NCBI RefSeq assembly: GCF_016903815.1
Contig: NZ_CP069973.1
Source of the DNA: Escherichia coli
GTDB lineage: Bacteria > Pseudomonadota > Gammaproteobacteria > Enterobacterales > Enterobacteriaceae
Length of the DNA stretch: 64,000 bases
Strand: one strand, 5' to 3'
Shown: piece after piece, positions 9,111 through 35,851 of the stretch
Numbering within the stretch: the stretch's first letter is position 1
Layout: each line of letters starts with the position of its first letter
Notes under the pieces: generated by a model
Databases searched by the model: none
Seen by the model: only the letters and a program-made list of their open reading frames with translations
What the model was told of the DNA's origin: nothing
Program-made: the position numbers and the translations under genes

Positions 9111-9402
9111 CTGCTTTTCCTTGATGCTATAGGGGTGCTGAGACCGATAACGCATTTTGTAAACCATCCCTGTGAGAGCGAATATTCCGATATCTGGTTA
9201 TTAATTTATGATTCTTGTTTTATGTGATCGTGGTAGCGTTAATTCCGCTCATATATCATTGTAAAATATGGGTTTTATATGAATTATAATGCTTTCGTGA
9301 TAATACGCTGCGTGTATTAGGCGGAAAAAACTGATCTGGGGGATGTAGAAACTCAAGGAAGTAGCTATAATGCGCCCCGCCTCCATGTAGCAATCGAGGC
9401 GC

Positions 9403-9497
9403 GGAAGATCGTCGTCTCCGGTGAGGCGGCTGGACTTCAAATCCAGTTGGGGCCGCCAGCGGTCCCGGGCAGGTTCGACTCCTGTGATCTTCCGCCA
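9403..9497 (+). tRNA. selC: tRNA-Sec (selenocysteine tRNA), 95 nt ending in CCA
   Basis: Sequence GGAAGATCGTCGTCTCCGGTGAGGCGGCTGGACTTCAAATCCAGTTGG...GTTCGACTCCTGTGATCTTCCGCCA read directly; UCA anticodon loop (CTTCAAATC); long variable arm. Confidence 0.95.
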
Positions 9498-9796
9498 GTT
9501 TACCTCTTCTGAACTCTCCCAATGTCAATAAATCTCTTCTAATCCCTTGTATATCAGTATTTATTTGTATCCAGAGGTCAACCTACTTCACCCCGTATCA
9601 AGTTTCTTTTGGGGGTACTTTAGGGGGTGTTATTTCCTATTGAAATACCAGCACCCCCATAATAGGAAAAATATGATATATAACAACGGCTTTTAACAAC
9701 ATCTTTGTTATACAAGGGGTGTATTGGGGGTATCAGGTTAGTTACTGGCAGAAATCCCCCTCAGGAACATGAATTCATCAAAAGCCGGAGGATGTC

Positions 9797-10981
9797 ATGG
9801 CATTAACCGATATCAAAGTGAAAACCGCAAAACCCAAAGACAAACCCTATAAGCTTGCTGATGGCGGCGGTATGTATCTACTGATTAACACTAATGGTTC
9901 TAAATACTGGCGCATGAAGTACCGCTTTGCTGGTAAAGAAAAGATGCTTTCTATTGGCGTATACCCCGATGTAACGCTAGCCGATGCTCGCGAGAAACGC
10001 AGTGAAGCCAGGAAACTCCTCGCTGCTGGAGGCGATCCAGGGGAGGCAAAAAAGGAAGAAAAAATCGCGCAGCAAATGAGTCTGCAAAATACGTTCGAGG
10101 CTATTGCTCGCGAATGGCACCAGTCAAAAGCCGATCGGTGGTCATTACGCTATCGTGATGAAATCATTGATACCTTTGAAAAAGACATTTTTCCCTACAT
10201 TGGCAAGCGCCCTATTGCCGAAATCAAACCAATGGAGTTACTGGAAGCACTGCGTAAAATGGAAAAACGTGGAGCTCTGGAGAAAATGCGCAAGGTCCGC
10301 CAGCGCTGTGGTGAGGTGTTCCGCTATGCAATTGTTACTGGCCGGGCAGACTATAACCCAGCCCCCGATCTTGCCAGTGCTTTAGCTACACCGAAAAAAG
10401 TACATTTTCCCTTTCTTACTGCTAATGAACTTCCCCACTTCCTCAACGATCTGGCGGGTTATACCGGAAGTATAATCACTAAGACAGCTACTCAGATCAT
10501 TATGTTAACCGGCGTACGAACACAAGAACTGCGTTTTGCACGCTGGGAAGATATCGATTTTGAGACAAAATTGTGGGAGATCCCGGCAGAAGTAATGAAG
10601 ATGAAGCGACCTCATATTGTGCCGCTCTCTGAGCAGGTCATTATGCTATTTAAGCAGCTTGAACCAATCTCAAAACATCATCCCCTAGTCTTTATCGGTA
10701 GAAATGATCCCCGCAAACCAATTAGTAAGGAAAGCATTAACCAAGTAATTGAATTACTTGGATATAAGGGAAGACTCACAGGGCATGGTTTCAGACACAC
10801 CATGAGTACAATTCTGCATGAACAAGGCTTTAATTCCGCCTGGATTGAAATGCAGTTAGCTCATGTGGATAAAAATTCCATCAGGGGTACCTATAATCAT
10901 GCCCTGTATCTCGATGGCCGCCGTGAAATGATGCAATGGTACGCTGATTACATTGATTCACTCTCCAGCCGGGAAAGTTAA
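9797..10981 (+). CDS. P4-family tyrosine integrase (394 aa), island integrase at selC
   Basis: N-terminus MALTDIKVKTAKPKDKPYKLADGGGMYLLI... typical of P4-type integrases; C-terminal catalytic region with HGFRHT and Y; strong RBS GGAGG; 300 bp downstream of selC. Confidence 0.85.
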   Translation: MALTDIKVKTAKPKDKPYKLADGGGMYLLINTNGSKYWRMKYRFAGKEKMLSIGVYPDVTLADAREKRSEARKLLAAGGDPGEAKKEEKIAQQMSLQNTFEAIAREWHQSKADRWSLRYRDEIIDTFEKDIFPYIGKRPIAEIKPMELLEALRKMEKRGALEKMRKVRQRCGEVFRYAIVTGRADYNPAPDLASALATPKKVHFPFLTANELPHFLNDLAGYTGSIITKTATQIIMLTGVRTQELRFARWEDIDFETKLWEIPAEVMKMKRPHIVPLSEQVIMLFKQLEPISKHHPLVFIGRNDPRKPISKESINQVIELLGYKGRLTGHGFRHTMSTILHEQGFNSAWIEMQLAHVDKNSIRGTYNHALYLDGRREMMQWYADYIDSLSSRES

Positions 10982-11391
10982 GTCAAAAATACTTTTCCCT
11001 GATGTTTTCCTCAATTAAGTATTTTATCCTCTGGCCTACAAGGCTGGAGGATTTTTGTTATTATATTATTTTTTGCGTCTTCAAACTTATTACAAAAACA
11101 TAATTAAAAGCAAATTGACATTTTTAAATTGGCAATTACAAAATACAGCCTTGCAGTTATTTCGATACCTTTAGCAAAGGAAAAGTTGATTCAGATATAA
11201 TTTAGCATTTCAATCATCTGACATCATTATAAAAAATGAGATTCACATAAAGATAAAATTATTGTTCTCAAGGAAAGCATGAAGGGGCTTTGTAAGCAAT
11301 ATTCATTCAGTGCCAAGACAGGACTTGATACACAGAATCTCAACTTTTATGCTCTCAGACTATATCACCACATGTTTTACAGGCTCAGAAA

Positions 11392-12435
11392 ATGAACGAT
11401 AGATTATGCTTTGAAGTGCACGATAACCAGGGTTATTTCGTATTTCCGGATACCTGGTTTGGCCCATTGCTGGGGGAGTTTGAAGAAGTGCTTGATGCAT
11501 ACGACGCTGATGAAATCAGCGAGACGAGTTACATCAACAAACTCCGACGCCTTGCTCAACGGGAGCCGGACTTTATTGATATACACGCTCATCTGGCATA
11601 TGCATTTCTGGAACAGAATGCCCCGCGTAAGGCACTGAACGCCGCTCTTAAAGGACTGGCGGCAGGTAATCGTATCATCCCGGAAAGTTTCTGTGGTGAA
11701 ATAATCTGGATGCATCCCGAAAACCGGCCTTATCTGCGCGCGCTTTATGCAGCAATTCTCGCAAATGTGCACTTACAGCGCCATCAGGATGCGGTTATGC
11801 TCACTGATAAAATACTGGCATACAATCCTGAAGATAATCAGGGGGCTCGCTGGTTGTTGGGTTCAGAGCTGTTACGCACCGGCGATCATGAGCGAGCCTT
11901 CAGTGTACTGAAAGAGCATGCTGATGAATTTTCACCTTACTGGTATGAACTCGGTCTCCTGCATTTTCTGAACGGGGAACATGTTAAGGCCGCCACAGCT
12001 TTTCGCCATGGCTTTGCCACAAACACTTACATCGCAGAAATGCTGTGCGGAAATCTGCATCCATTTCCACTTGCTGTGTGGCATGACTTCTCCGGCTCTC
12101 TGGATACGGCAGAAGATTACTATGCAACATACTCACCATTATGGGGACAATATCCGGAAGCATTGCTGTTTGTAAACTGGCTCTATAATCATTCCTCTGT
12201 GCTGCATGAACGGGCAGAAATCATTAAATGCGCCGAAATGCTGATGCAGGAAGATGATTTCGAAATATGCGAAAGTATTTTAAGACAGCAGGAGAAGTTG
12301 CGTGAAAGAATTGATGAGACGCTTTCTGAAAAAATTGTACAGAAATGCAGAAATATGAATGGTGAATATGTCTGGCCCTGGATATTGCCGTTTTCAGCGG
12401 CAGGCATGAAACATACTGGCATACAGTATCAGTAG
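11392..12435 (+). CDS. hypothetical protein (347 aa), island cargo of unknown function
   Basis: Long ORF after a 410-bp AT-rich spacer downstream of the integrase; predicted mainly helical, no recognised motif. Confidence 0.55.
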   Translation: MNDRLCFEVHDNQGYFVFPDTWFGPLLGEFEEVLDAYDADEISETSYINKLRRLAQREPDFIDIHAHLAYAFLEQNAPRKALNAALKGLAAGNRIIPESFCGEIIWMHPENRPYLRALYAAILANVHLQRHQDAVMLTDKILAYNPEDNQGARWLLGSELLRTGDHERAFSVLKEHADEFSPYWYELGLLHFLNGEHVKAATAFRHGFATNTYIAEMLCGNLHPFPLAVWHDFSGSLDTAEDYYATYSPLWGQYPEALLFVNWLYNHSSVLHERAEIIKCAEMLMQEDDFEICESILRQQEKLRERIDETLSEKIVQKCRNMNGEYVWPWILPFSAAGMKHTGIQYQ

Positions 12436-12832
12436 ATATTGCATTAGTGTATCCTGCACACAAGTAATAATTTATCCACCAATAATAACACTGTTAATGT
12501 CCCCTTCCCCTGGTTGTCAGCCAGGGGTTATCTTCTGAATATTTCTTTTGAAAAGGATAACACAGTAAATTATTTTTATGAATTATCCCATGGACTCATT
12601 AACACCCTTTCATAATGCTTTATTGTCAAACACGTTATGGCTGACATCAAAAAAAACCGGATTTCCTCTGCCAGCGGGTAATCACCTTCCCGGTGTTTTC
12701 GGTTGGTCTGGTTACTCCTGTCTGGTTATTAGCAAGATAATTGCTATAAACAGTGGAAAACTCATCGTACATAATCTGGTGATGAACATTACGCTTATTT
12801 TCCCTTGACCGGAAGAATCAGAGGCTGTGGTT

Positions 12833-13903
12833 TCAGTCATACAGTCCATCTCCTTTAATCGGAGTTGGCTCTTTCCCTGGCCGTATACGGCGAACAGATT
12901 CTCGTATTACCAGTTTCCCATACAAAAGTAATGCACCAACAGTTGCATCAGGACGTACAAGTCTTTGTTGTAACATATGTACCGCTTCAGTACCCAGTTC
13001 ATCGCGAGGTACATGTACTGCCGTAAGTGGCACATCTTCTATTGCAGCCAGATTAAACCCATCAATACTCATTACGGACACATCTTGTGGCACTCGTATA
13101 TTACGTTTTTTTAAAGCGTTAATTATACCTGCAGCAATGAAGTCCCCACTTGCCAAAAAAGCAGTCGGTAGCATACTTTTCTCTGTCATATCCAGCCATG
13201 CTCCGACTTTTTCTTCGGCTTCTTTGGCGCTGAAACTATTAATAGTGAGTAAATCTCTGTCATCTTTAAAGTTCTGATTCTGTCTCTCCCATGCTTCTTT
13301 AATTCCGGCAAGTCGCAGTTCCATTGTGTATCGACGTAAACACATAATGTTCATTACTCTGCGATGCCCCATTTCAAACAGAAAGTGAGACGCAAAAGCA
13401 CCAATGTTTTTGTGATCTGGAGCAACTGTGGGAAGACGCATACGTCGATCATGGCAGTTAATCATTACGCACGGCTTAGAAAAATCTGCTGCAAGATCAT
13501 GTATATGAGGATCATCAATACCAAGCAATATTGCAGCCTGTGTTTCTGCCTCATTCATGCGCGCCAGGAATTTTGAAGGTGTACTATCGAACTCATCAAG
13601 GGCACAGTAACGCAACCGAACCTCATAATGCGATAATGCCTTGCTGATGCTTTGGATTACGCGGAAATAAAAAATGTCTGTTCGCTCATCAAAAGCCCGT
13701 TGAGGAGCAAAAATGACAAGGTTGTTTAACAACATACGGCCGGATGCCATTCCATCCATAACCCCAAGCTCTCTGGCACACGCCAATACTTTCTCGCGGG
13801 CACGATAACTGGTATTAGCTTTACCCGCTAAAACCCGTGACACGGTGCTGGATGAAAGGCCTGTTCGCATGGCAATATCAGCAATCTTTAGTTTTTTTTC
13901 CAT
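12833..13903 (-). CDS. LacI-family transcriptional regulator
   Basis: N-terminal HTH (KIADIAMRTGLSSSTVSRVLAG) plus periplasmic-binding-like sugar-binding core; start placed at first ATG (the track ORF begins at an upstream TTG, 13927). Confidence 0.8.
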   Translation of the reverse strand: MEKKLKIADIAMRTGLSSSTVSRVLAGKANTSYRAREKVLACARELGVMDGMASGRMLLNNLVIFAPQRAFDERTDIFYFRVIQSISKALSHYEVRLRYCALDEFDSTPSKFLARMNEAETQAAILLGIDDPHIHDLAADFSKPCVMINCHDRRMRLPTVAPDHKNIGAFASHFLFEMGHRRVMNIMCLRRYTMELRLAGIKEAWERQNQNFKDDRDLLTINSFSAKEAEEKVGAWLDMTEKSMLPTAFLASGDFIAAGIINALKKRNIRVPQDVSVMSIDGFNLAAIEDVPLTAVHVPRDELGTEAVHMLQQRLVRPDATVGALLLYGKLVIRESVRRIRPGKEPTPIKGDGLYD

Positions 13904-14164
13904 ATTGTGATCTATCTCTAATTTCAAAATGAAAAAATTCTCATGGGATGGAATAGCCTGACTGCAAGGACTTCTGACTATTTTTAGAATTTATATGAAC
14001 TACTTATGAAAAAACGTGCACAATACCAACTTTTTTTCATCGCCCCCCTCTTTTATTGTGAATGAGTAGTTCCGGTTTAAGTATTAAGCCGAAAGGTAAA
14101 GTGGGATGTGGCAACCCCGAGCTGCGTTGTCGCTCGATCATTTATTACATCCGGTGGGGTGATT

Positions 14165-15466
14165 ATGAGTCAGGATATAAATAATAATATAGCTGTCAGC
14201 AAACACCGTCGAATAATAAGACAACTACGGTGGTGGATGTTAATCCTTTTTCTAATGGGTGTCACTGTCAATTATATTACCAGAAACTCATTAGGTATTT
14301 TGGCACCAGAGTTAAAAGACAGCCTTGGAATTACAACTGAACAATACTCCTGGATTGTTGGTGGATTTCAGCTTGCATATACCCTTTTTCAGCCACTTTG
14401 TGGATGGCTAATTGATGTTATTGGGCTCAAGATTGGATTTATGATTTGTGCTTCATTATGGGGAATTGCTTGTCTTCTGCATGCAGGAGCAGGAAGCTGG
14501 ATACAGCTTGCGTTGCTTCGTTTTTTCATGGGAGGTGCTGAGGCTTCTGCGACACCTGCAAATGCAAAAATTATAGGTGAGTGGTTTCCAAAATCTGAAC
14601 GTCCTGTTGCTGCTGGCTGGGCGGGTGTCGGTTTTTCTATCGGTGCAATGCTTGCACCACCAATTATTTACTTTGCACATGCGTCATTTGGTTGGCAGGG
14701 TGCATTTATGTTTACAGGTGCACTTGCAATTCTTTGGGTTTTCCTTTGGTGGGCGTGTTATAACACACCAGAAGAGCACCCAAACTTAAGTAAAAATGAG
14801 CTCAACTTTATCCGACAGGATAACGAAGCTCCTCCGGTAAAAATGCCTTTTCTGACCGCGTTAAAAACAGTTAGTAAAAATAAACGCTTTTATGGAATCG
14901 CTATCCCTGCATTTATGGCAGAGCCAGCATGGGCTGTAATGAGCTTTTGGGTGCCATTATATCTTGCAAAAGCATATGGCATGGACCTTAAACAAATAGC
15001 TCTGTTTGCATGGTTACCATTTCTTTGCGCTGATTTAGGAAGTATTGCCAGCGGATATCTGACAAAACTCTATACCCGTCTGTTTGGGTTAAGCAGAGTA
15101 AATTCTGTTATTGCGTCCTCTGTAAGCGGAGCATTTCTAATGGTTTCGCTTGCTGTGATTGCTTTTATCGACAATCCATATATTGCTATTGTACTTATCT
15201 CCATTGGTGGTTTTGGTCATCAGATAATTTCCTGCATGTTAAGTGCCCTGGTCGTTGAATCTTTTGATAAGGGGCAGATGGCCACTGTTAATGGAATGCG
15301 TGGTTCAGCCGCATGGATTGCCAGCTTTTTGTTCTCACTGATTATTGGCGTTACTGCTGACAAAATAGGCTTTAACCCGCTATTTATCGCCATGGGATTT
15401 TTTGATCTTATTGGTGCTTTTTTTCTGGTTACTTTTATTGCAGAACGTCGCAAAAAACGCACCTGA
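14165..15466 (+). CDS. MFS transporter (ACS/ExuT-like sugar acid/oligosaccharide permease)
   Basis: 12-TM MFS; start placed at ATG preceded by GGTGGGGTGA RBS (MSQDINNN...); the track ORF extends upstream to 14108. Confidence 0.8.
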   Translation: MSQDINNNIAVSKHRRIIRQLRWWMLILFLMGVTVNYITRNSLGILAPELKDSLGITTEQYSWIVGGFQLAYTLFQPLCGWLIDVIGLKIGFMICASLWGIACLLHAGAGSWIQLALLRFFMGGAEASATPANAKIIGEWFPKSERPVAAGWAGVGFSIGAMLAPPIIYFAHASFGWQGAFMFTGALAILWVFLWWACYNTPEEHPNLSKNELNFIRQDNEAPPVKMPFLTALKTVSKNKRFYGIAIPAFMAEPAWAVMSFWVPLYLAKAYGMDLKQIALFAWLPFLCADLGSIASGYLTKLYTRLFGLSRVNSVIASSVSGAFLMVSLAVIAFIDNPYIAIVLISIGGFGHQIISCMLSALVVESFDKGQMATVNGMRGSAAWIASFLFSLIIGVTADKIGFNPLFIAMGFFDLIGAFFLVTFIAERRKKRT

Positions 15467-15480
15467 GGGAGTATGTGGAG

Positions 15481-17862
15481 ATGAAAACATTAAAAAACTG
15501 GAAACTACAAAATCAGTCAGCCCATCATATAGAGCTATTAGTTGATGGTCAGCATTCTCTTTGCCTGTATATACTCGAAGAAAATATGTTCCGGGTTCTA
15601 TTAAAACGGAAGGGGGTTTTGTCGCTGGACCGAACCTGGAGCATTGCTCCGGAAAAGGATGTCCCGTGGGAAGGGCGTCATCGCGAAGATATTAGCGGTT
15701 TTTCACTGCCGACCTGGAACATGGAGCAGAATGATGAATTACTGACAATCACGACCAGTTCATTACGCGTAATTATTCACAAGCCTTTATGGCTTGAATG
15801 GCATTATAAGGATAATGCTGGTCAGTGGCAGGAACTTGTTAATGATCGCCCTACCAGTGCTTATCTGATAAACGCTCATGGTGATGGTGTTGCACACTAT
15901 CAAAGTCGACGTAATGACGAGCGTTTTTATGGACTTGGTGATAAATCCGGGGATCTGCAACGCACAGGAAAACGCTATGAAATGCGGAACCTGGACGCAA
16001 TGGGATATAATGCAGTAAGTACAGACCCTCTTTATAAACATATTCCATTTACAATTACTCACCGTAGCGATATTAGCTTTGGATTATTTTATGATAACCT
16101 CAGCAATAGTTGGCTGGATTTAGGTAATGAAATAGATAATTATCATACAACTTACCGCCGTTGGCAGGCTGAGGCGGGAGATATTGATTATTATCTTTTC
16201 ACTGGCAGATGTGTACTTGATATCACCAAAGCCTTTGTTCGTTTGACGGGGAAAACACTCTTCGGTCCAAAATGGAGTCTTGGGTACAGCGGTTCCACGA
16301 TGCACTATACAGATGCACCGGATGCTCAGAATCAATTGATGCAGTTTATTCGTCTTTGTAAGGAACATGCTATTCCATGTGATTCTTTCCAGCTATCTTC
16401 TGGTTATACTTCTATTAATGGTAAACGCTACGTATTCAACTGGAATTACGACAAAGTTCCACACCCTAAAATGATGAGTCAGGAGTTTCATAATGCAGGG
16501 ATACACCTGGCCGCTAATATAAAACCATGTTTATTGCAGGATCATCCTCGCTATAACGAAGTAGCAGAACAAGAGCTCTTTATTCGTGACTCTGAATACA
16601 ACGTCCCGGAACGCTCCAGCTTCTGGGATGATGAGGGTTCTCATCTGGACTTTACGAACCCACAAACAGTCGCATGGTGGCAGGAAGGTGTAACCACACA
16701 ACTACTTGAAATGGGAATTGATTCCACCTGGAATGATAACAATGAGTTTGAAGTATGGGATGGGGAAGCGCGCTGTCATGGTTTTGGCAAAGAAATCGCC
16801 ATTAAACACATTCGGCCAGTAATGCCTCTTTTAATGTGCAGAGCATCTATGGAAGCACAGCAAAAATTTGCACCGAACAAACGACCATATTTGATTTCCC
16901 GCTCTGGATGCGCCGGATTGCAGCGTTATGTTCAGACATGGAGTGGGGACAACCGAACTAACTGGGATACCCTTCGATACAACACCCGCATGGGGCTGGG
17001 AATGAGCCTCTCAGGATTGTATAACATTGGTCATGATGTCGGTGGTTTTTCTGGTGATAAGCCTGATCCAGAATTATTTGTTCGTTGGGTTCAGAACGGT
17101 GTTATGCACCCCCGATTTACGATCCACTCGTGGAATGATGATCATACTGTCAATGAACCATGGATGTATCCGGAAGTAACACCCGCGATTCGTAGTGCAA
17201 TTGAGTTACGTTATCGTCTTATGCCTTATTTATATACATTATTGTGGCAGGCACATGCCGATGATGAGCCAATATTACGTCCAACCTTCCTTGATCATGA
17301 GCACGATGTTCAGACATTTGAAGAATGTGATGATTTTATGCTGGGACGCGATATTCTGGTTGCAAGTGTCGTGGAAGCAGGGCAACGACAACGACGAGTA
17401 TGGTTACCCGACAACAAAACAGGATGGTACGACTTTTACAATGGCGAATGGTTCTGTGGTGGTCAATGGATAACAATCGACGCGCCACTGGAAAAACTAC
17501 CATTATTAGTACGTGCAGGTGCAGGTATTCCTCTTAGTGAACGTATAACATACGTGAGTGAAGCGGAAGATAATCATCGTAAATTGAAATTATTCCCAAT
17601 TAAAGGAACGGGTAAATCCACCGGACTTCTGTTTGAAGATGATGGCGAAACTTGGGGATATACTGAAGGTAATGCTCTGTGGCTTGAATGGGAGCTGGAC
17701 TGCACAGCCACTACAATTGAGTTAAGAATAAACACTCATGGAGATTATCGCCCTGCATGGGAAACATTGAAAGTGATAATTCCTCAGGGAGAAAGTCGTC
17801 AACTACTGATTAACGGCATTGAGGCTTATGAATGGAATATGAACCTATCCTGTAATGATTAA
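15481..17862 (+). CDS. glycoside hydrolase family 31 (alpha-glucosidase/alpha-xylosidase-like)
   Basis: GH31 signatures including WNDNNE and GDN; start at ATG after GAGGGAG RBS; second GH31 enzyme in the window besides yicI. Confidence 0.85.
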   Translation: MKTLKNWKLQNQSAHHIELLVDGQHSLCLYILEENMFRVLLKRKGVLSLDRTWSIAPEKDVPWEGRHREDISGFSLPTWNMEQNDELLTITTSSLRVIIHKPLWLEWHYKDNAGQWQELVNDRPTSAYLINAHGDGVAHYQSRRNDERFYGLGDKSGDLQRTGKRYEMRNLDAMGYNAVSTDPLYKHIPFTITHRSDISFGLFYDNLSNSWLDLGNEIDNYHTTYRRWQAEAGDIDYYLFTGRCVLDITKAFVRLTGKTLFGPKWSLGYSGSTMHYTDAPDAQNQLMQFIRLCKEHAIPCDSFQLSSGYTSINGKRYVFNWNYDKVPHPKMMSQEFHNAGIHLAANIKPCLLQDHPRYNEVAEQELFIRDSEYNVPERSSFWDDEGSHLDFTNPQTVAWWQEGVTTQLLEMGIDSTWNDNNEFEVWDGEARCHGFGKEIAIKHIRPVMPLLMCRASMEAQQKFAPNKRPYLISRSGCAGLQRYVQTWSGDNRTNWDTLRYNTRMGLGMSLSGLYNIGHDVGGFSGDKPDPELFVRWVQNGVMHPRFTIHSWNDDHTVNEPWMYPEVTPAIRSAIELRYRLMPYLYTLLWQAHADDEPILRPTFLDHEHDVQTFEECDDFMLGRDILVASVVEAGQRQRRVWLPDNKTGWYDFYNGEWFCGGQWITIDAPLEKLPLLVRAGAGIPLSERITYVSEAEDNHRKLKLFPIKGTGKSTGLLFEDDGETWGYTEGNALWLEWELDCTATTIELRINTHGDYRPAWETLKVIIPQGESRQLLINGIEAYEWNMNLSCND

Positions 17863-18459: not shown

Positions 18460-18963
18460 TTACTGATAGTGTTTTATGTTCAGATAATGCCCGATGACCT
18501 TGTCATGCAGCTCCACCGATTTTGAGAACGACAGTGACTTCCGTCCCAGCCTTGCCAGATGTTGTCTCAGATTCAGATTATGTCGCTCAATGCGCTGAGT
18601 GTAACGCTTGCTGATAACGTGCAGCTTTCCCTTCAGGCGTGATTCATACAGCGGCCAGCCATCCGTCATCCATACCACGACCTCAAAGGCCGACAGCAGG
18701 CTCAGAAGACGCTCCAGTGTGGCCAGAGTGCGTTCACCGAAGACGTGCGCCACAACCGTCCTCCGTATCCTGTCATACGCGTAAAACAGCCAGCGCTGAC
18801 GTGATTTAGCACCGACGTAGCCCCACTGTTCGTCCATTTCAGCGCAGACAATCACATCACTGCCCGGTTGTATGCGCGAGGTTACCGACTGCGGCCTGAG
18901 TTTTTTAAGTGACGTAAAACCGTGTTGAGGCCAACGCCCATAATGCGTGCACTGGCGCGACAT
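18460..18963 (-). CDS. insB: IS1 InsB reading frame (expressed as InsAB by frameshift)
   Basis: ORF-track 167-aa frame overlapping insA inside IS1. Confidence 0.8.
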
Positions 18964-19157
18964 CCGACGCCATTCATGGCCATATCAATGATTTTCTGGT
19001 GCGTACCGGGCTGAGAGGCGGTGTAAGTGAACTGTAGTTGCCATGTTTTACGGCAATGAGAGCAGAGATAGCGCTGATGTCCGGCAGTGCTTTTGCCGTT
19101 ACGCACCACGCCTTCAGTAGCGGAGCAGGAAGGACATCTGATGGAAATGGAAGCCAC
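18882..19157 (-). CDS. insA: IS1 InsA (91 aa)
   Basis: ORF-track protein [40 protein letters not shown]... inside the IS1 copy. Confidence 0.85.
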
Positions 19158-19212
19158 GCAAGCACCTTAAAATCACCATCATACACTAAATCAGTAAGTT
19201 GGCAGCATTACC

Positions 19213-19301
19213 AAATCTGGAGCTACCACGCGTTGTTCTGGCTGGCGATAGGGATGTTGGGTATTGCGATGATTTGCCTGCTGTTTATTAAAGATATTTA
19301 G
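19213..19301 (+). pseudogene. 3' remnant of an MFS sugar-efflux gene (setC-like), truncated by IS1
   Basis: Immediately after the IS1 end an in-frame stretch ...IWSYHALFWLAIGMLGIAMICLLFIKDI-stop remains with no start; in K-12 setC lies between selC and yicL (recalled). Confidence 0.5.
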
Positions 19302-19411
19302 CTCACCAGTCTGGGCTAAGAAAAATCGGCGTGGCGCAAACAGAGCCATCCTCGCCATTTTTGCTATCATGCCTGCATACATAAACGACAAAACAGTATG
19401 CAGAGGGAAAA

Positions 19412-34400: not shown

Positions 34401-35851
34401 CCGGAAACAGCTACTTTTCCGTCCGCTGATTGCAGGGAGGCGGCTTCAATGTCATAACCTTTCAGCGCATATTTGGTTTGTAAGGAAGAAACCAGCGATT
34501 TAACCTCACCCGGCTTGCCTTTCAACGGATCGGTCAGCGTCAGCCGCACCAGCTCTTTCTTGCGATATTCAAGGACAATATTGTTATTACGATCGACCAG
34601 GTCATAGCGACTGCCCACAAGGCTGCGTCGTGCTGCAACTTCAGCCGGATCGAGCTGTTTTTGCAGTGAATGACCGGGTTGCAACGTCAACTCCATACCA
34701 ATTCGGGTGTCGTTTTCTCCCTGTTTGCCCTGCCGTTGCTCGGCACTAAAGGAGATCAGAGGAACAGGGGTATAACTCAAACCTGCGGTAATCGCGTGAG
34801 GATCATTTTGTCGCTCGTCTTTACCAAACAGCGCCACTTCATCGCCATAATATTGTTCATAGACCAACTTGCCGCCCAGCTGCGGCCAGGCCGGTAACCA
34901 GCCTTCGGCGCGAAGATCCCACCCGTTCGCCGGACGTGCTTCATAGTCATTGTCGAGTTCCGGTGCACTACGCCAGTTACTGAGGCGCAGATAACCGTTG
35001 CCGCTCAGTTTCAGGTAATCGCGCCAGTATTCAACGCCCATCCCGGTTCGGGTGTGATAGCGGGTCAGGTCATGATCGATAAACATATTGACGCCAGACA
35101 TCCAGCTCGATGTGAAATAACGCCAGCCGATACCGTGGTTGGTTTGAGTGCGATCATCCGTACGGTGAAGTGTGTGCTGGCTTAAGACCAGGTTATCCGG
35201 CGTTTCGTACCAGGGATGGAGAAATTCAAATGACGAGCTTTTAAGGCTGAAATCTTCATCCACACCAAGAGATACCCGGGCAGTTCCCCAACGACTGAGC
35301 CAGTCCGTTGCCTGCGCAGATGCAGAAGAAGCCACCCAGCCACGCGCCATACTCGCCGCCTGTTCGCTGTCCATATCGCGTGCTAAAAGTGTTCCGCTTT
35401 GCTGCGCCACTTCCGCGACCTGCATTTGCGGATCTTTGCCATCGCGCTCCATCTGCATTGCTTTCAGGTTGCGCGCTTCAGGGCTGTTACTGTTAATGAG
35501 GGGCACATCTATTTCATCGCCCTGACGCACATGGTCAAAGCCCCGCGCAAAGGTACGGAACTGATTCAGGCGACGTAATTCATCAACGGTGATACCAAAG
35601 CGTGCCGCGACCGTTGGTGGCGATTCCAACGCACCCAGGGTATATGGAATAGTTTTAACGTTCGGCAGGATCAGTGACGCGGCAGTATCCGAGTGCGCAG
35701 GATTAATATGCGTCGGGGCAGCAGCCATAACAGGGAAAATAGTTTGTGTTATCAGGCAAATACCTGCGGTCAGACGACGTAAACGATCCCCCAATCCACA
35801 TATGGTGTTATCGCCCCGACGATCGCCATTCCCATGCGCTTTCCCTGCCAT
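25487..35851 (-). CDS. giant intimin/invasin-family inverse-autotransporter adhesin with about 20 tandem Ig-like (Big) repeats; 3' end replaced by IS1 (3454 aa as read)
   Basis: N-terminal LysM-like segment and intimin-type beta-barrel region (YWRDYLKLSGNGY, ERPANGWDLR, LVYEQYYGDEVALF, SRYDLVDRNNNIVLEY), then repeated ~97-aa modules (PDGTVEISVTSQTAG...VTDAFGN...); the stop codon TAA lies inside the IS1 terminal repeat (25487-25489). Resembles the EaeX/Air adhesin described with the eip locus (recalled). Confidence 0.85.
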   Translation of the reverse strand: MAGKAHGNGDRRGDNTICGLGDRLRRLTAGICLITQTIFPVMAAAPTHINPAHSDTAASLILPNVKTIPYTLGALESPPTVAARFGITVDELRRLNQFRTFARGFDHVRQGDEIDVPLINSNSPEARNLKAMQMERDGKDPQMQVAEVAQQSGTLLARDMDSEQAASMARGWVASSASAQATDWLSRWGTARVSLGVDEDFSLKSSSFEFLHPWYETPDNLVLSQHTLHRTDDRTQTNHGIGWRYFTSSWMSGVNMFIDHDLTRYHTRTGMGVEYWRDYLKLSGNGYLRLSNWRSAPELDNDYEARPANGWDLRAEGWLPAWPQLGGKLVYEQYYGDEVALFGKDERQNDPHAITAGLSYTPVPLISFSAEQRQGKQGENDTRIGMELTLQPGHSLQKQLDPAEVAARRSLVGSRYDLVDRNNNIVLEYRKKELVRLTLTDPLKGKPGEVKSLVSSLQTKYALKGYDIEAASLQSADGKVAVSGKDIQVTIPPYRFTAMPETDNTYPIAVTAEDSKGNFSRREESMVVVEKPTLSLADSTLSVDLQILLADGKSTSMLTYTARDSSGKPIPGMTLKTQAKGLQDFALSEWKDNGNGTYTQIVTAGKTSGALSLMPQFNGDDIAKTPALIAIVANTASRADSTIETDQDNYVAGKPIVVKVTLRDDNGNGVTGRKELLKQTVKVDNTKADAVSAWTEESEGIYKASYTAHLIGDKLTAQLTMPGWQTKHSDAFSIAGDKDTAKIAAMQITANNAVARRDHNTVAVTVRDVHQNLLQGQNVTFTVVNGAAVFADPNGGIVTTDKDGIASVNLASDQAVNSLIKAEINGSSQSVEVSFITGDISQLTSTIKTDDVSYTAGGKIKVSVTLMDEQKNLVKGMASLLAGSGVVEVSGTDKNEMGNWSEESDGVYTTTRTAKIAGDRHYATLKLSTWSSAQQSDAYAIRESGAVLAYSSIVTDKTTYTAGGAIKVTVTLKDSYENLVGGQRDAINQAIQLPNTKAESIAWNEDQKGIYTATYTALLPGTGLKAQLQMSGWASALTSNDYSISGDAASAQIVAMQVTTGNPDVLANGSDRHTVNVRVEDQFGNVLPEQTVTFTVTKGAAVFANAGQSADIRTDAHGMAEVDLSSTVADASTVEAKVNQSSDSKTVNFVADVSTAQVAELVVTQDGSVADGSTANMLRVRVTDVFGNVLAGQTVSVTADNSATVAPTVITGPDGTVEISVTSQTAGTSAITASINNSSLSRNVTFVADVRTAKIADLVVTRDNSVADGAMANTLRVRVTDAFGNTLAGQTVSVMADNSATVSPTVTTEPDGTVEISVTSQTAGVSTVTASINSSSQSRNVTFVADVRTAKIADLVVIKDGSEADGSTANTLRARVTDAFGNTLGGQTVSVLADNGATVAPTVTTQPDGTVEISVTSQTAGTSTVTASINNSSLSQNVTFVADVRTAKIADLVVIKDGSVADGATANTLQVKVTDAFGNALNGQTVSVMAGNGATVTPTVITGPDGTVEISATSQTAGISTVTVTINNSSLSRNVMFVADVRTAQIADLVVIKDGAVADGAMANMLQVKVTDAFGNTLAGQTVSVLAGNGATTASTVTTQPDGTVEISVTSQTAGTSVVTASINNSSQSRNVTFIADVRTAKIADLEVIKDGSEADGSTANTLRARVTDAFGNALAGQTVSVLADNGATVALTETTKPDGTAEISVTSQTAGVSAVTVSINNSSQSRNVTFIADVRTAQIAELVVIKDGSEADGSTANTLRVRVTDAFGNALAGQTVSVLADNGATVAPTVTTQPDGTVEISVTSQTAGTSTVTASINSSSQSRNVTFIADVSTAQIADLVVIKDDSVADGAMANTLRVRVTDAFGNALAGQTVSVMAGNGATVAPTVITEPDGTVEISVTSQTAGISAVTASINSSSQSRDVTFIADVRTAKIAELEVIRDNAVADGSTANTLQVKVTDANDNTLAGQAVSVLAGNSATVASTVTTKPDGTVEISVTSQTAGTSTVTASINSSSLSRNVTFVADVSTAKIADLVVIQDNSVADGAMANTLRMRVTDAFGNTLGGQTVSVTADNSAMVASTVITGPDGTVEISVTSQTAGISIVTASINNSSLSRDVTFVADVRTAQIADLVVIKDGSEADGLTANTLQVRVTDAFGNALAGQTVSVLADNGATVAPTVTTQPDGTVEISVTSQTAGVSAVTATINSSSQSQNVTFIADVRTAKIADLVVIKDGSEADGSTANTLRARVTDAFGNALAGQAVSVMAGNSATVTPTVTTQSDGTVEFSVTSQTAGTSTVTASINSSSLSRDVTFIADVRTAQIAVLEVTQDYAVADGSTANTLRARVTDAFGNALAGQTVSVLGGNGATVSPTVITGPDGTVEISVTSQTAGASTVTASINSSSLSRNVTFVADVRTAQIAVLEVTQDYAVADGSTANTLRARVTDAFGNALAGQTVSVTAGNGATVSPTVITGPDGTVEISVTSQTAGVSAVTATINNSTASQNVMFIADVRTAKIADLVVIKDDSVADGAMANMLRARVTDAFGNALAGQTVSVMAGNGATTAPTVTTQPDGTVEISATSQTAGISTVTATINNSSLSRNVMFVADVRTAQIADLVVIKDGSVADGSTANMLRVRVTDAFGNALGGQTVSVLADNGVTTAPTVITEPDGTVEISVTSQTAGVSAVTATINSSSQSQNVTFIADVSTAKIADLVVIKDGSEADGSTANTLRVRVTDAFGNTLAGQTVSVLADNGATTAPTVITEPDGTVEISVTSQTAGVSAVTASINSSSQSRNVTFVADVRTAQIADLVVIKDGSEADGATANTLRARVTDAFGNALAGQTVSVLADNGATVAPTVTTQPDGTVEISVTSQTAGISAVTASINNSSLSRNVTFIADVSTAKIADLVVIKDGSEADGSTANTLQVKVTDANGNTLAGQTVSVLAGNSATVTPTVTTKPDGTVEISVTSQTAGISAVTASINSSSQSRNVTFIADVRTAKIADLVVIKDDSVADGAMANMLRARVTDAFGNALAGQTVSVLAGNSATVAPTMTTKPDGTVEISVTSQTAGTSTVTASINNSSQSQNVTFVPGDASQLTSIVETNKSNYTVGETITITVTLRDAFDNLVTGAASQLAADGVLTVAGTDPSEMGSWVESGGVYTTTRMATIASTNQHANLQLQTWSDGVTSDRYDIQSGSPAQATSTIATDKNAYTAGDTITVAVTLKDAHGNLVEGGESLLSGDNVTVEGAVRSGGWSETAGVYTATWSAQMAGDSHHATLKLSEWGSSKQSESYSIHSGAPVQANSAIRTDKSAYIAGEPLTVTITLRDEFGNPALGLTSEVIESYIDSFAVGGATHDAMRWVEQNNGEYTIVWTAWVAEENLVASLKLKTWATEIKSSLYGIQPGAAAKTQSTIVADKTIYIAGDSITVTVVLKDAQGNFITDGVVQLNEENG
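26480..32400. repeat. tandem array of about 20 near-identical ~291-bp coding repeats (Ig-like domain units) inside the adhesin gene
   Basis: Protein-level count of 20 near-identical units; the many plus-strand ORFs in this span are antisense artefacts of the repeat. Boundaries approximate. Confidence 0.8.

Follow-up and report, generated by a model that had tools for sequence, protein, structure and literature searches.

The open reading frame (ORF) that follows the integrase gene in a selC-linked island of Escherichia coli is almost certainly a ShiA/SisB-type allele of the ShiA/SisA/SisB family. The preliminary description of the window, that is, of the whole 64-kb stretch of DNA analysed here, had presented this ORF as an orphan of unknown function, a claim that has to be dropped: the ORF corresponds to the named gene shiA/sisB, for which animal-model phenotypes have been published, and as a gene that is already known it is not reportable as a new island gene. 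For its mode of action we propose a cytoplasmic, non-enzymatic tetratricopeptide repeat (TPR) scaffold that would hold a partner in a conserved groove, act inside the bacterium and affect the host indirectly, an explanation to which, taken as a whole, we give a probability of about 55%.

We base the ShiA/SisB-type assignment on sequence identity, on the reproduction of a published identity value and on primer matches. At the protein level, 334 of the 347 residues (96.3%, full length) are identical to those of the Shigella flexneri protein P0001 (ShiA), and the published identities to S. flexneri ShiA are 96.8% for SisB and 83.3% for SisA (PMC13340028). Comparing P0001 with P0006, the common pheV/pheU allele, we recovered exactly the published ShiA-SisA value (289/347, 83.3%). 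Furthermore, each of the shiA/sis primers has a single, perfect match in the ORF (11614-11633, + strand; 11880-11905, - strand), and the predicted PCR product of 292 bp has the published size (PMC3256949). The ORF thus shares with ShiA, SisA and SisB the full-length identity range, the primer amplicon and the slot after a P4-type integrase at selC, pheV or pheU. RefSeq names the product 'tetratricopeptide repeat protein' (WP_000999850.1), and a 1044-bp gene given this name by PGAP has been equated with SisA (PMC13340028). The order selC-int-shiA has been described for Shigella SHI-2 and for the STEC selC island GIselC (PMC6174562), and the homologues reported elsewhere are sisA and sisB of UPEC and the 'ShiA/SisA' of two STEC islands, SE-PAI and LAA (PMC7545054, PMC13340028).

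The features of the locus are, in window coordinates:

9403..9497 (+): tRNA-Sec gene (selC), integration site of the island (ARAGORN; Rfam RF01852, 83.8 bits)
9474-9489: attL core, the selC 3' end TTCGACTCCTGTGATC, present as a single copy within the 64-kb window (repeat named in PMC6174562)
9797..10981 (+): P4-type tyrosine integrase, 394 aa (RefSeq WP_001218910.1, 'tyrosine-type recombinase/integrase')
10982..11391 (+): AT-rich spacer, 410 bp, with promoter-like sites at 11115-11144 (10/12 match) and 11325-11353
11026..11052 (+): terminator-like hairpin ending the integrase transcript, 12-bp stem and T run
11241..12760 (+): homology block common to the pheV, pheU and plasmid copies, the 'shiA cassette' (blastn)
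11392..12435 (+): shiA/sisB-type gene, ATG start, 347 aa, 40.2 kDa, pI 5.1, cytoplasmic TPR-like alpha-solenoid
11614..11905 (+): published shiA/sis PCR amplicon, 292 bp, both primers with 0 mismatches (PMC3256949)
12507..12527 (+): terminator-like GC-rich hairpin, 72 bp past the shiA/sisB-type stop codon
12595..12793 (-): degraded 3' remnant of a phosphoethanolamine-transferase gene, with in-frame stops and a frameshift (tblastn, blastn)

The ORF is real and not a chance reading frame, because dN/dS among the TPR alleles (0.12-0.26) indicates purifying selection, because an exhaustive search of 1.84 billion representative proteins returned 91 matches at E<=1e-30 (401 at E<=1e-10, many of them full-length at 28-45% identity), and because the start codon is conserved across the family, as are motifs over the whole length. 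The 347-aa frame at 11392-12435 is confirmed as it had been described, on the + strand with an ATG start, and so is its position directly 3' of the island integrase as the first cargo gene, in the order selC, integrase, ORF. The 410-bp spacer had been called AT-rich and promoter-like, and we agree: with 31% GC it is well below the island (43%) and the window (49%), and promoter-like sites in 10900-12900 number 11, against 4.6 +/- 2.2 in shuffled sequences, among them TTGACA-18-CAAAAT at 11115-11144. An Rfam scan found no RNA family in the spacer. With the integrase-gene terminator at 11026-11052, the shiA/sisB-type ORF forms a separate transcription unit, and, judging by the predicted sites, the gene has a promoter region and a terminator to itself and so makes up a self-contained monocistronic cassette.

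The selC island and the portable cassette

The window covers the selC locus of E. coli (yicI, yicJ, selC, island, yicL), and its positions 9300-13000 are 100% identical to many complete genomes. Of 5426 complete E. coli genomes, 2536 (about 47%) carry a member of the shiA family. The number of places ranges from 1 to 6 in a genome, and in total 3300 places are chromosomal and 21 lie on plasmids. Full-length chromosomal copies inspected in E. coli always lie directly behind a P4-type integrase, which has 394 aa for the selC copy, 396 aa for the pheV and pheU copies and 421 aa for further pheV/pheU copies, and the order of integrase and TPR gene was found in 24 of 24 contigs for P0006, directly or as similar collapsed places. 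The suggestion of an integrase-proximal accessory gene of a tRNA-linked island therefore holds, with the order kept at selC, pheV and pheU, and the linkage check proposed along with it gives the same answer in E. coli, where the full-length chromosomal copies adjoin an integrase at one of these three sites.

The integrases upstream of the gene are only 41-62% identical to each other with saturated dS, against 85-95% identity and dS of 0.2-0.58 for the TPR alleles. At the nucleotide level, the cassette block is 84-95% identical and the flanking integrases 55-66%, and blastn places the homology between islands from 17-150 bp 5' of the ATG to 325-400 bp past the stop codon. Judging from these alignments, the shared unit is a cassette of roughly 1.4-1.6 kb and not an integrase-plus-TPR module, and this sharing of the cassette alone argues against the TPR gene being a dedicated partner of the integrase. 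In the pheV/pheU islands, an intact phosphoethanolamine-transferase gene converges on the TPR gene, and it is the ancestral right-hand neighbour of the cassette. Intact copies without an integrase were found on an ETEC eatA plasmid and on IncF plasmids, and O157:H7 has a degraded copy in the ter/iha island. K-12 has no member of the family, and a search of its leuX-intB-yjgX locus for a remnant of the gene found none.

The 76-aa 'hypothetical protein' ORF that RefSeq places at 12578-12808 (+) overlaps the phosphoethanolamine-transferase remnant on the opposite strand. This ORF is probably spurious, because it overlaps a degraded copy of a gene that is intact in the pheV/pheU islands.

The right end of the island (~18460-19400) consists of an IS1 and a truncated sugar-transporter gene adjoining yicL. 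With a single copy of the selC 3' repeat and an IS1 end next to yicL, the island of roughly 9.5 kb would be unable to excise and is, as read from its sequence, an immobile remnant that has lost attR. Between selC and the integrase start (9608-9628 and 9620-9740) are several GGGGGT-containing repeats, such as TTTGGGGGTACTTTAGGGGGT, described as a direct repeat in PMC6174562, which may be arm-type binding sites of the integrase. The main cargo of the island (12833-17862) comprises a LacI-family regulator (-), followed by an MFS transporter and a GH31 glycosidase (+). This sugar-utilisation module may correspond to the carbohydrate-uptake cluster of the selC island in the avian strain BEN2908.

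Positions 1-24723 of the window are identical to E. coli strain 7/2, and an IS1 copy at 24724-25491 replaces about 5.3 kb of that strain (L001 35425-40737). The replaced segment codes for a needle-tip protein of the IpaD/SipD kind and the regulator EilA, and it also contains the greater part of a hypothetical gene and the 3' end of the adhesin gene air/eaeX. The pattern suggests that IS1 deleted part of the ETT2-related eip/eilA/air region. The 3454-aa ORF at 25487-35851 (-) is the air/eaeX inverse autotransporter (about 60% GC), which contains a long array of tandem repeats of roughly 290 bp, mutually 84-88% identical, and whose 3' end runs into the IS1.

Fold, relatives and mode of action

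The AlphaFold (AF2) model of the ShiA/SisB-type protein is an all-alpha TPR solenoid with a pLDDT of 95.6, right-handed and built of antiparallel helix pairs. This structure prediction upholds the earlier statement that the protein is mostly helical, while the companion statement that no motif could be recognised does not stand, given that two models of the Pfam TPR clan pass their thresholds (ANAPC3 with 33.9 against 27.2 bits, TPR_19 with 25.1 against 25). TPR_2 or TPR_19 matches at E<=1 in 57 of 61 family members. The conserved residues of the putative groove are NRP 111-113, D148, R205, N211/Y213, W251, E273/R274 and PW 329-330. Hydropathy over 19 residues peaks at 0.75, and the N-terminus does not resemble a signal sequence; sequence analysis found no signal peptide and no membrane segment, and a review describes ShiA as 'predicted cytoplasmic' (PMC7545054). 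Further searches added little: searching the PDB with the single sequence returned EMC2 alone (E=0.1), a viral fold library gave generic TPR proteins and no specific viral structural match, a PHROGs scan gave nothing usable, and looking for homologues a second time by word index, now using the family alignment, gained little.

Beyond E. coli, in a scan of one genome per species, full-length relatives with 34-45% identity were found in many environmental bacteria, among them Verrucomicrobium, Vitreoscilla, Rubrivivax, Methylobacterium, Rhizobium, Agrobacterium vitis, Mesorhizobium, Paracoccus, Sphingobium, Asticcacaulis, Myxococcota and Acidobacteria. Plasmids carry copies in Aeromonas, Serratia, Pseudomonas, Rhizobium and Sphingobium, and 45 of the 75 plasmid records with a family gene are predicted to be conjugative. 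No homologue was found in 50,697 phage records.

A search over 25 distant loci found no neighbour conserved across the family and no relative of the window integrase, and outside the enterobacterial clade tRNA linkage was absent except at 1 locus. In two beta-proteobacteria (Rubrivivax and AAP65), a large DUF3701 tyrosine recombinase lies directly upstream on the same strand. Other neighbours at the distant loci are an ISL3 transposase, GmrSD, NACHT with Mrr, a GHKL ATPase with HSDR_N, DUF4365, HipA (five loci), Fic/Doc, an AAA_21/AbiEii-like ATPase and AAA_22 ATPases; neighbours of the GmrSD, NACHT+Mrr, GHKL+HSDR_N, HipA, Fic or AAA_21 kind occur at 12 of about 20 distant loci, with no partner common to them. 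Collectively, these results place the family in variable, mobile and conflict-rich regions of many non-pathogens, and for this reason host immunomodulation is unlikely to be its ancestral function.

Several of the distant loci have an arrangement of their own. A HipA-family kinase of exactly 410 aa is convergent to the TPR homologue in five unrelated genera (L021, L023, L024, L027 and L031, from Methylobacterium, Myxococcota, Pannonibacter, Agrobacterium vitis and Oryzicola), with a constant gap of ~145 bp in 4 of the 5 loci, which suggests that the TPR-hipA pair moves horizontally as a block. In Morganella morganii (L052 3325-4901), a homologue with 55% identity is enclosed in a Tn3-family transposon. 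On one side of it is the divergent transposase gene and on the other a serine resolvase gene, the start of which shares ~30 bp with the 3' end of the homologue. In Roseiarcus fermentans (L025 7751-8001), the homologue starts about 175 bp past a tRNA-Ala gene with no integrase between them.

The phenotypes attributed to the gene concern the host. According to papers citing the original studies (PMC7545054 and PMC13340028 among them), Shigella lacking a functional shiA elicits stronger inflammation, and sisA/sisB are thought to dampen the inflammatory response of the host when UPEC infects the urinary tract; the animal models are the rabbit loop and mouse lung for Shigella and mouse UTI for UPEC. 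A 2026 study of LAA deleted sisA together with three neighbouring genes, namely the PEtN transferase gene, hes and part of atoS (PMC13340028), so that its result is not specific to sisA. As to expression and carriage, 6 of 8 UPEC isolates were found to express sisA in the urine of patients (PMC2978726), shiA is induced anaerobically and independently of FNR (PMC4229854), the shiA/sis gene was found in 35% of EAEC cases and 36% of controls, and a 347-aa ShiA-like protein has been reported in strain REL606 (both PMC3256949).

Building on the identity, gene reality, fold, cassette structure and distribution that this analysis establishes, we picture the gene product as a soluble, acidic 40-kDa cytoplasmic protein made almost entirely of TPR-like helix pairs, whose cassette sits next to the integrase within a selC island that has decayed. 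This protein would serve as a non-enzymatic scaffold, its conserved groove binding a partner protein or peptide, and its site of action would lie inside the bacterium; an altered bacterial physiology or surface would then dampen host inflammation indirectly. We favour action inside the bacterium because of the environmental homologues, the ~47% carriage in E. coli, the copy in REL606 and the equal prevalence in EAEC cases and controls. Counting against this proposal, no neighbour that might be the partner of the scaffold is conserved family-wide. The environmental homologues, at 34-45% identity, may differ in function from the enterobacterial clade.

These results bear on the use of shiA/sisA as a virulence marker in STEC, EAEC and UPEC typing. 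Since nearly half of the complete E. coli genomes and many free-living bacteria carry the family, we argue that its ancestral role is not host immunomodulation.

Alternative explanations

An exported immunomodulatory effector acting directly in host cells, with a solenoid resembling that of TCF25/Rqc1, is an unlikely explanation. Because the phenotypes are host-side and are reportedly complemented by a single gene, direct action in host cells through an unrecognised export route would be compatible with them, and the absence of a signal peptide would be compatible with type III or non-classical secretion in Shigella. Under this hypothesis the solenoid could bind ubiquitin or a RING E3 ligase and thereby redirect the ubiquitin-chain signalling that drives inflammation. 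Against it, the window protein has no signal peptide, UPEC CFT073 is not known to have a virulence type III secretion system, and homologues occur in free-living soil and water bacteria. Furthermore, the window protein has no Tcf25 match at E<=1, hhalign scores of generic TPR proteins match that of TCF25, and the reported RING-contact residue F195 of TCF25 appears to lie N-terminal to the aligned region. The gene also shows no association with disease in EAEC (PMC3256949).

The resemblance to TCF25 that underlies this hypothesis comes from relatives of the window protein. While the protein itself has no match at E<=1 and so stays below the gathering threshold of the Pfam Tcf25 model (PF04910, 24.2 bits), the relative P0222, which hhalign links to the ShiA family at 99.7%, has Tcf25 as its top match with 50.5 bits (residues 44-225 to profile positions 27-221); P0215 reaches 26.3 bits and four more relatives 15.6-19.8 bits, all colinear, and a Tcf25 match at E<=1 is found in 16 of the 61 family members. 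We also aligned the family profile with the domain of human TCF25, a sequence that scores 445 bits over the full Tcf25 profile and matches no TPR model. The hhalign probability was 90% (E=1.7e-6, 169 columns), pairing NRPfLRa with ENRsFylal and nPxDNxG with lePdeDpl; reversed or shuffled TCF25 gave 0.1-0.5%, and generic TPR controls gave 54-98%, for which reason we downgraded the alignment. Rqc1 was absent among the PDB matches listed for P0222 (phmmer) and for the family profile (hmmsearch), and a literature search found no published connection between ShiA and TCF25. We therefore take the resemblance, which is one of sequence profiles, as a lead and not as family membership.

TCF25/Rqc1 binds ubiquitin and the RING domain of Listerin/Ltn1 near the ribosomal exit tunnel (PMC12047659, PMC12215860). 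A joint reading, which we consider quite improbable, would make the ShiA/SisA family a mobile prokaryotic branch of TCF25/Rqc1 with a primarily intracellular role and the inflammation phenotype as a by-product. If this were true, such a branch would reside on mobile elements in hosts as different as Escherichia, Rhizobiales, Burkholderiales, Verrucomicrobia and Acidobacteria, with a role, for example, at the large ribosomal subunit or in protein tagging or quality control during element-host conflict. Alternatively within the same reading, a ubiquitin-orienting scaffold might have been co-opted by pathogens against host ubiquitin signalling.

A gene of mobile-element conflict, whether anti-phage, anti-defence, or a regulator or sensor of toxin or restriction modules, would fit the surroundings of the family, and we regard it as similarly improbable; such a role would be why islands have kept the gene beside the integrase. 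The gene lies directly behind at least four kinds of integrase (three P4-type, one DUF3701 tyrosine recombinase), inside the Morganella Tn3-family transposon by the resolvase and beside an ISL3 transposase, its distant neighbours include GmrSD, NACHT+Mrr, GHKL+HSDR_N, DUF4365, HipA, Fic/Doc and AAA_21/AbiEii-like proteins, and it is plasmid-borne, mostly in records predicted to be conjugative (45/75). This association, however, is by location only: no family of PADLOC-DB v2 matches at E<=1, there is no effector or nucleotide-binding domain, no neighbour is conserved family-wide, neither a phage-genome homologue nor a specific viral structural match was found, and most distant loci have no tRNA nearby. 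The anti-phage role suggested in the preliminary description has no direct support, with no PADLOC match and no homologue in the phage records; indirectly, it is supported only by the restriction, NLR-like and toxin genes that surround distant homologues.

A directionality or regulatory factor for excision or integration of the island is very unlikely. The same-strand order of integrase and TPR gene is constant at selC, pheV, pheU, Rubrivivax and the beta-proteobacterium AAP65, as expected of an integrase accessory, but the two genes do not co-diverge (integrases 41-62% with saturated dS, TPR alleles 85-95%) and are separated by a terminator, and intact plasmid copies have no integrase at all. 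In the window, the gene is intact although the island has lost attR and would be unable to excise, and the protein, with 347 aa and no DNA-binding domain, is unlike Xis/AlpA-type factors. Co-evolution of the TPR gene with the integrase was rejected on this discordant divergence.

An enzyme or transporter can practically be dismissed, since the labels 'putative quinone reductase/NADPH oxidoreductase' and 'transporter gene' appear only as statements citing Moss et al. 1999 (PMC6174562, PMC7545054) and are contradicted by the sequence and the predicted structure, with no oxidoreductase family in Pfam, NCBIfam or PDB searches, an all-alpha solenoid model in place of a nucleotide- or flavin-binding fold, and no membrane segment. 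The 'quinone reductase' and 'transporter' labels for ShiA should stop spreading. Homology to a characterised enzyme or regulator, named in the preliminary description as one of two findings that would count against its proposal, was not found, and neither was the other, a consistent chromosomal location unlinked to mobile elements.

Comparison with known systems

Compared with TCF25/Rqc1 (PF04910), a eukaryotic factor of ribosome-associated quality control, only the first ~220 of 337 profile positions align with the ShiA family, at an identity of about 15-18%, and the family has a C-terminal module of its own (residues ~215-347) whose motifs do not align to TCF25. The setting differs as well, since E. 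coli is not known to encode ubiquitin or Listerin.

Generic bacterial TPR scaffolds (MamA, LapB/YciM, PilF, SycD/IpgC/SctY) share the helix-pair solenoid and the canonical TPR units, which correspond to residues ~120-210 of the window protein. Each of them, however, covers at most about 195 residues of the window model, and the N-terminal beta-hairpin and conserved C-terminal third of the family have no counterpart in them. As a class II chaperone of type III secretion (SctY, NCBIfam equivalog), the window protein fails, scoring 27.7 bits against a cutoff of 70.

The closest known systems are ShiA of S. flexneri SHI-2 and SisB and SisA of UPEC CFT073, with which the window protein shares its 347-aa length, at 96.3% identity to ShiA and 85-86% to SisA-type alleles. 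Shigella ShiA and the window allele differ at 13 residues, most of which fall within the C-terminal 75. The island itself differs from SHI-2 in its cargo, with a LacI-MFS-GH31 sugar module where SHI-2 has aerobactin genes, and in being truncated by IS1 and without attR, whereas the slot of the gene, directly after a P4-type integrase at selC, is the same in both.
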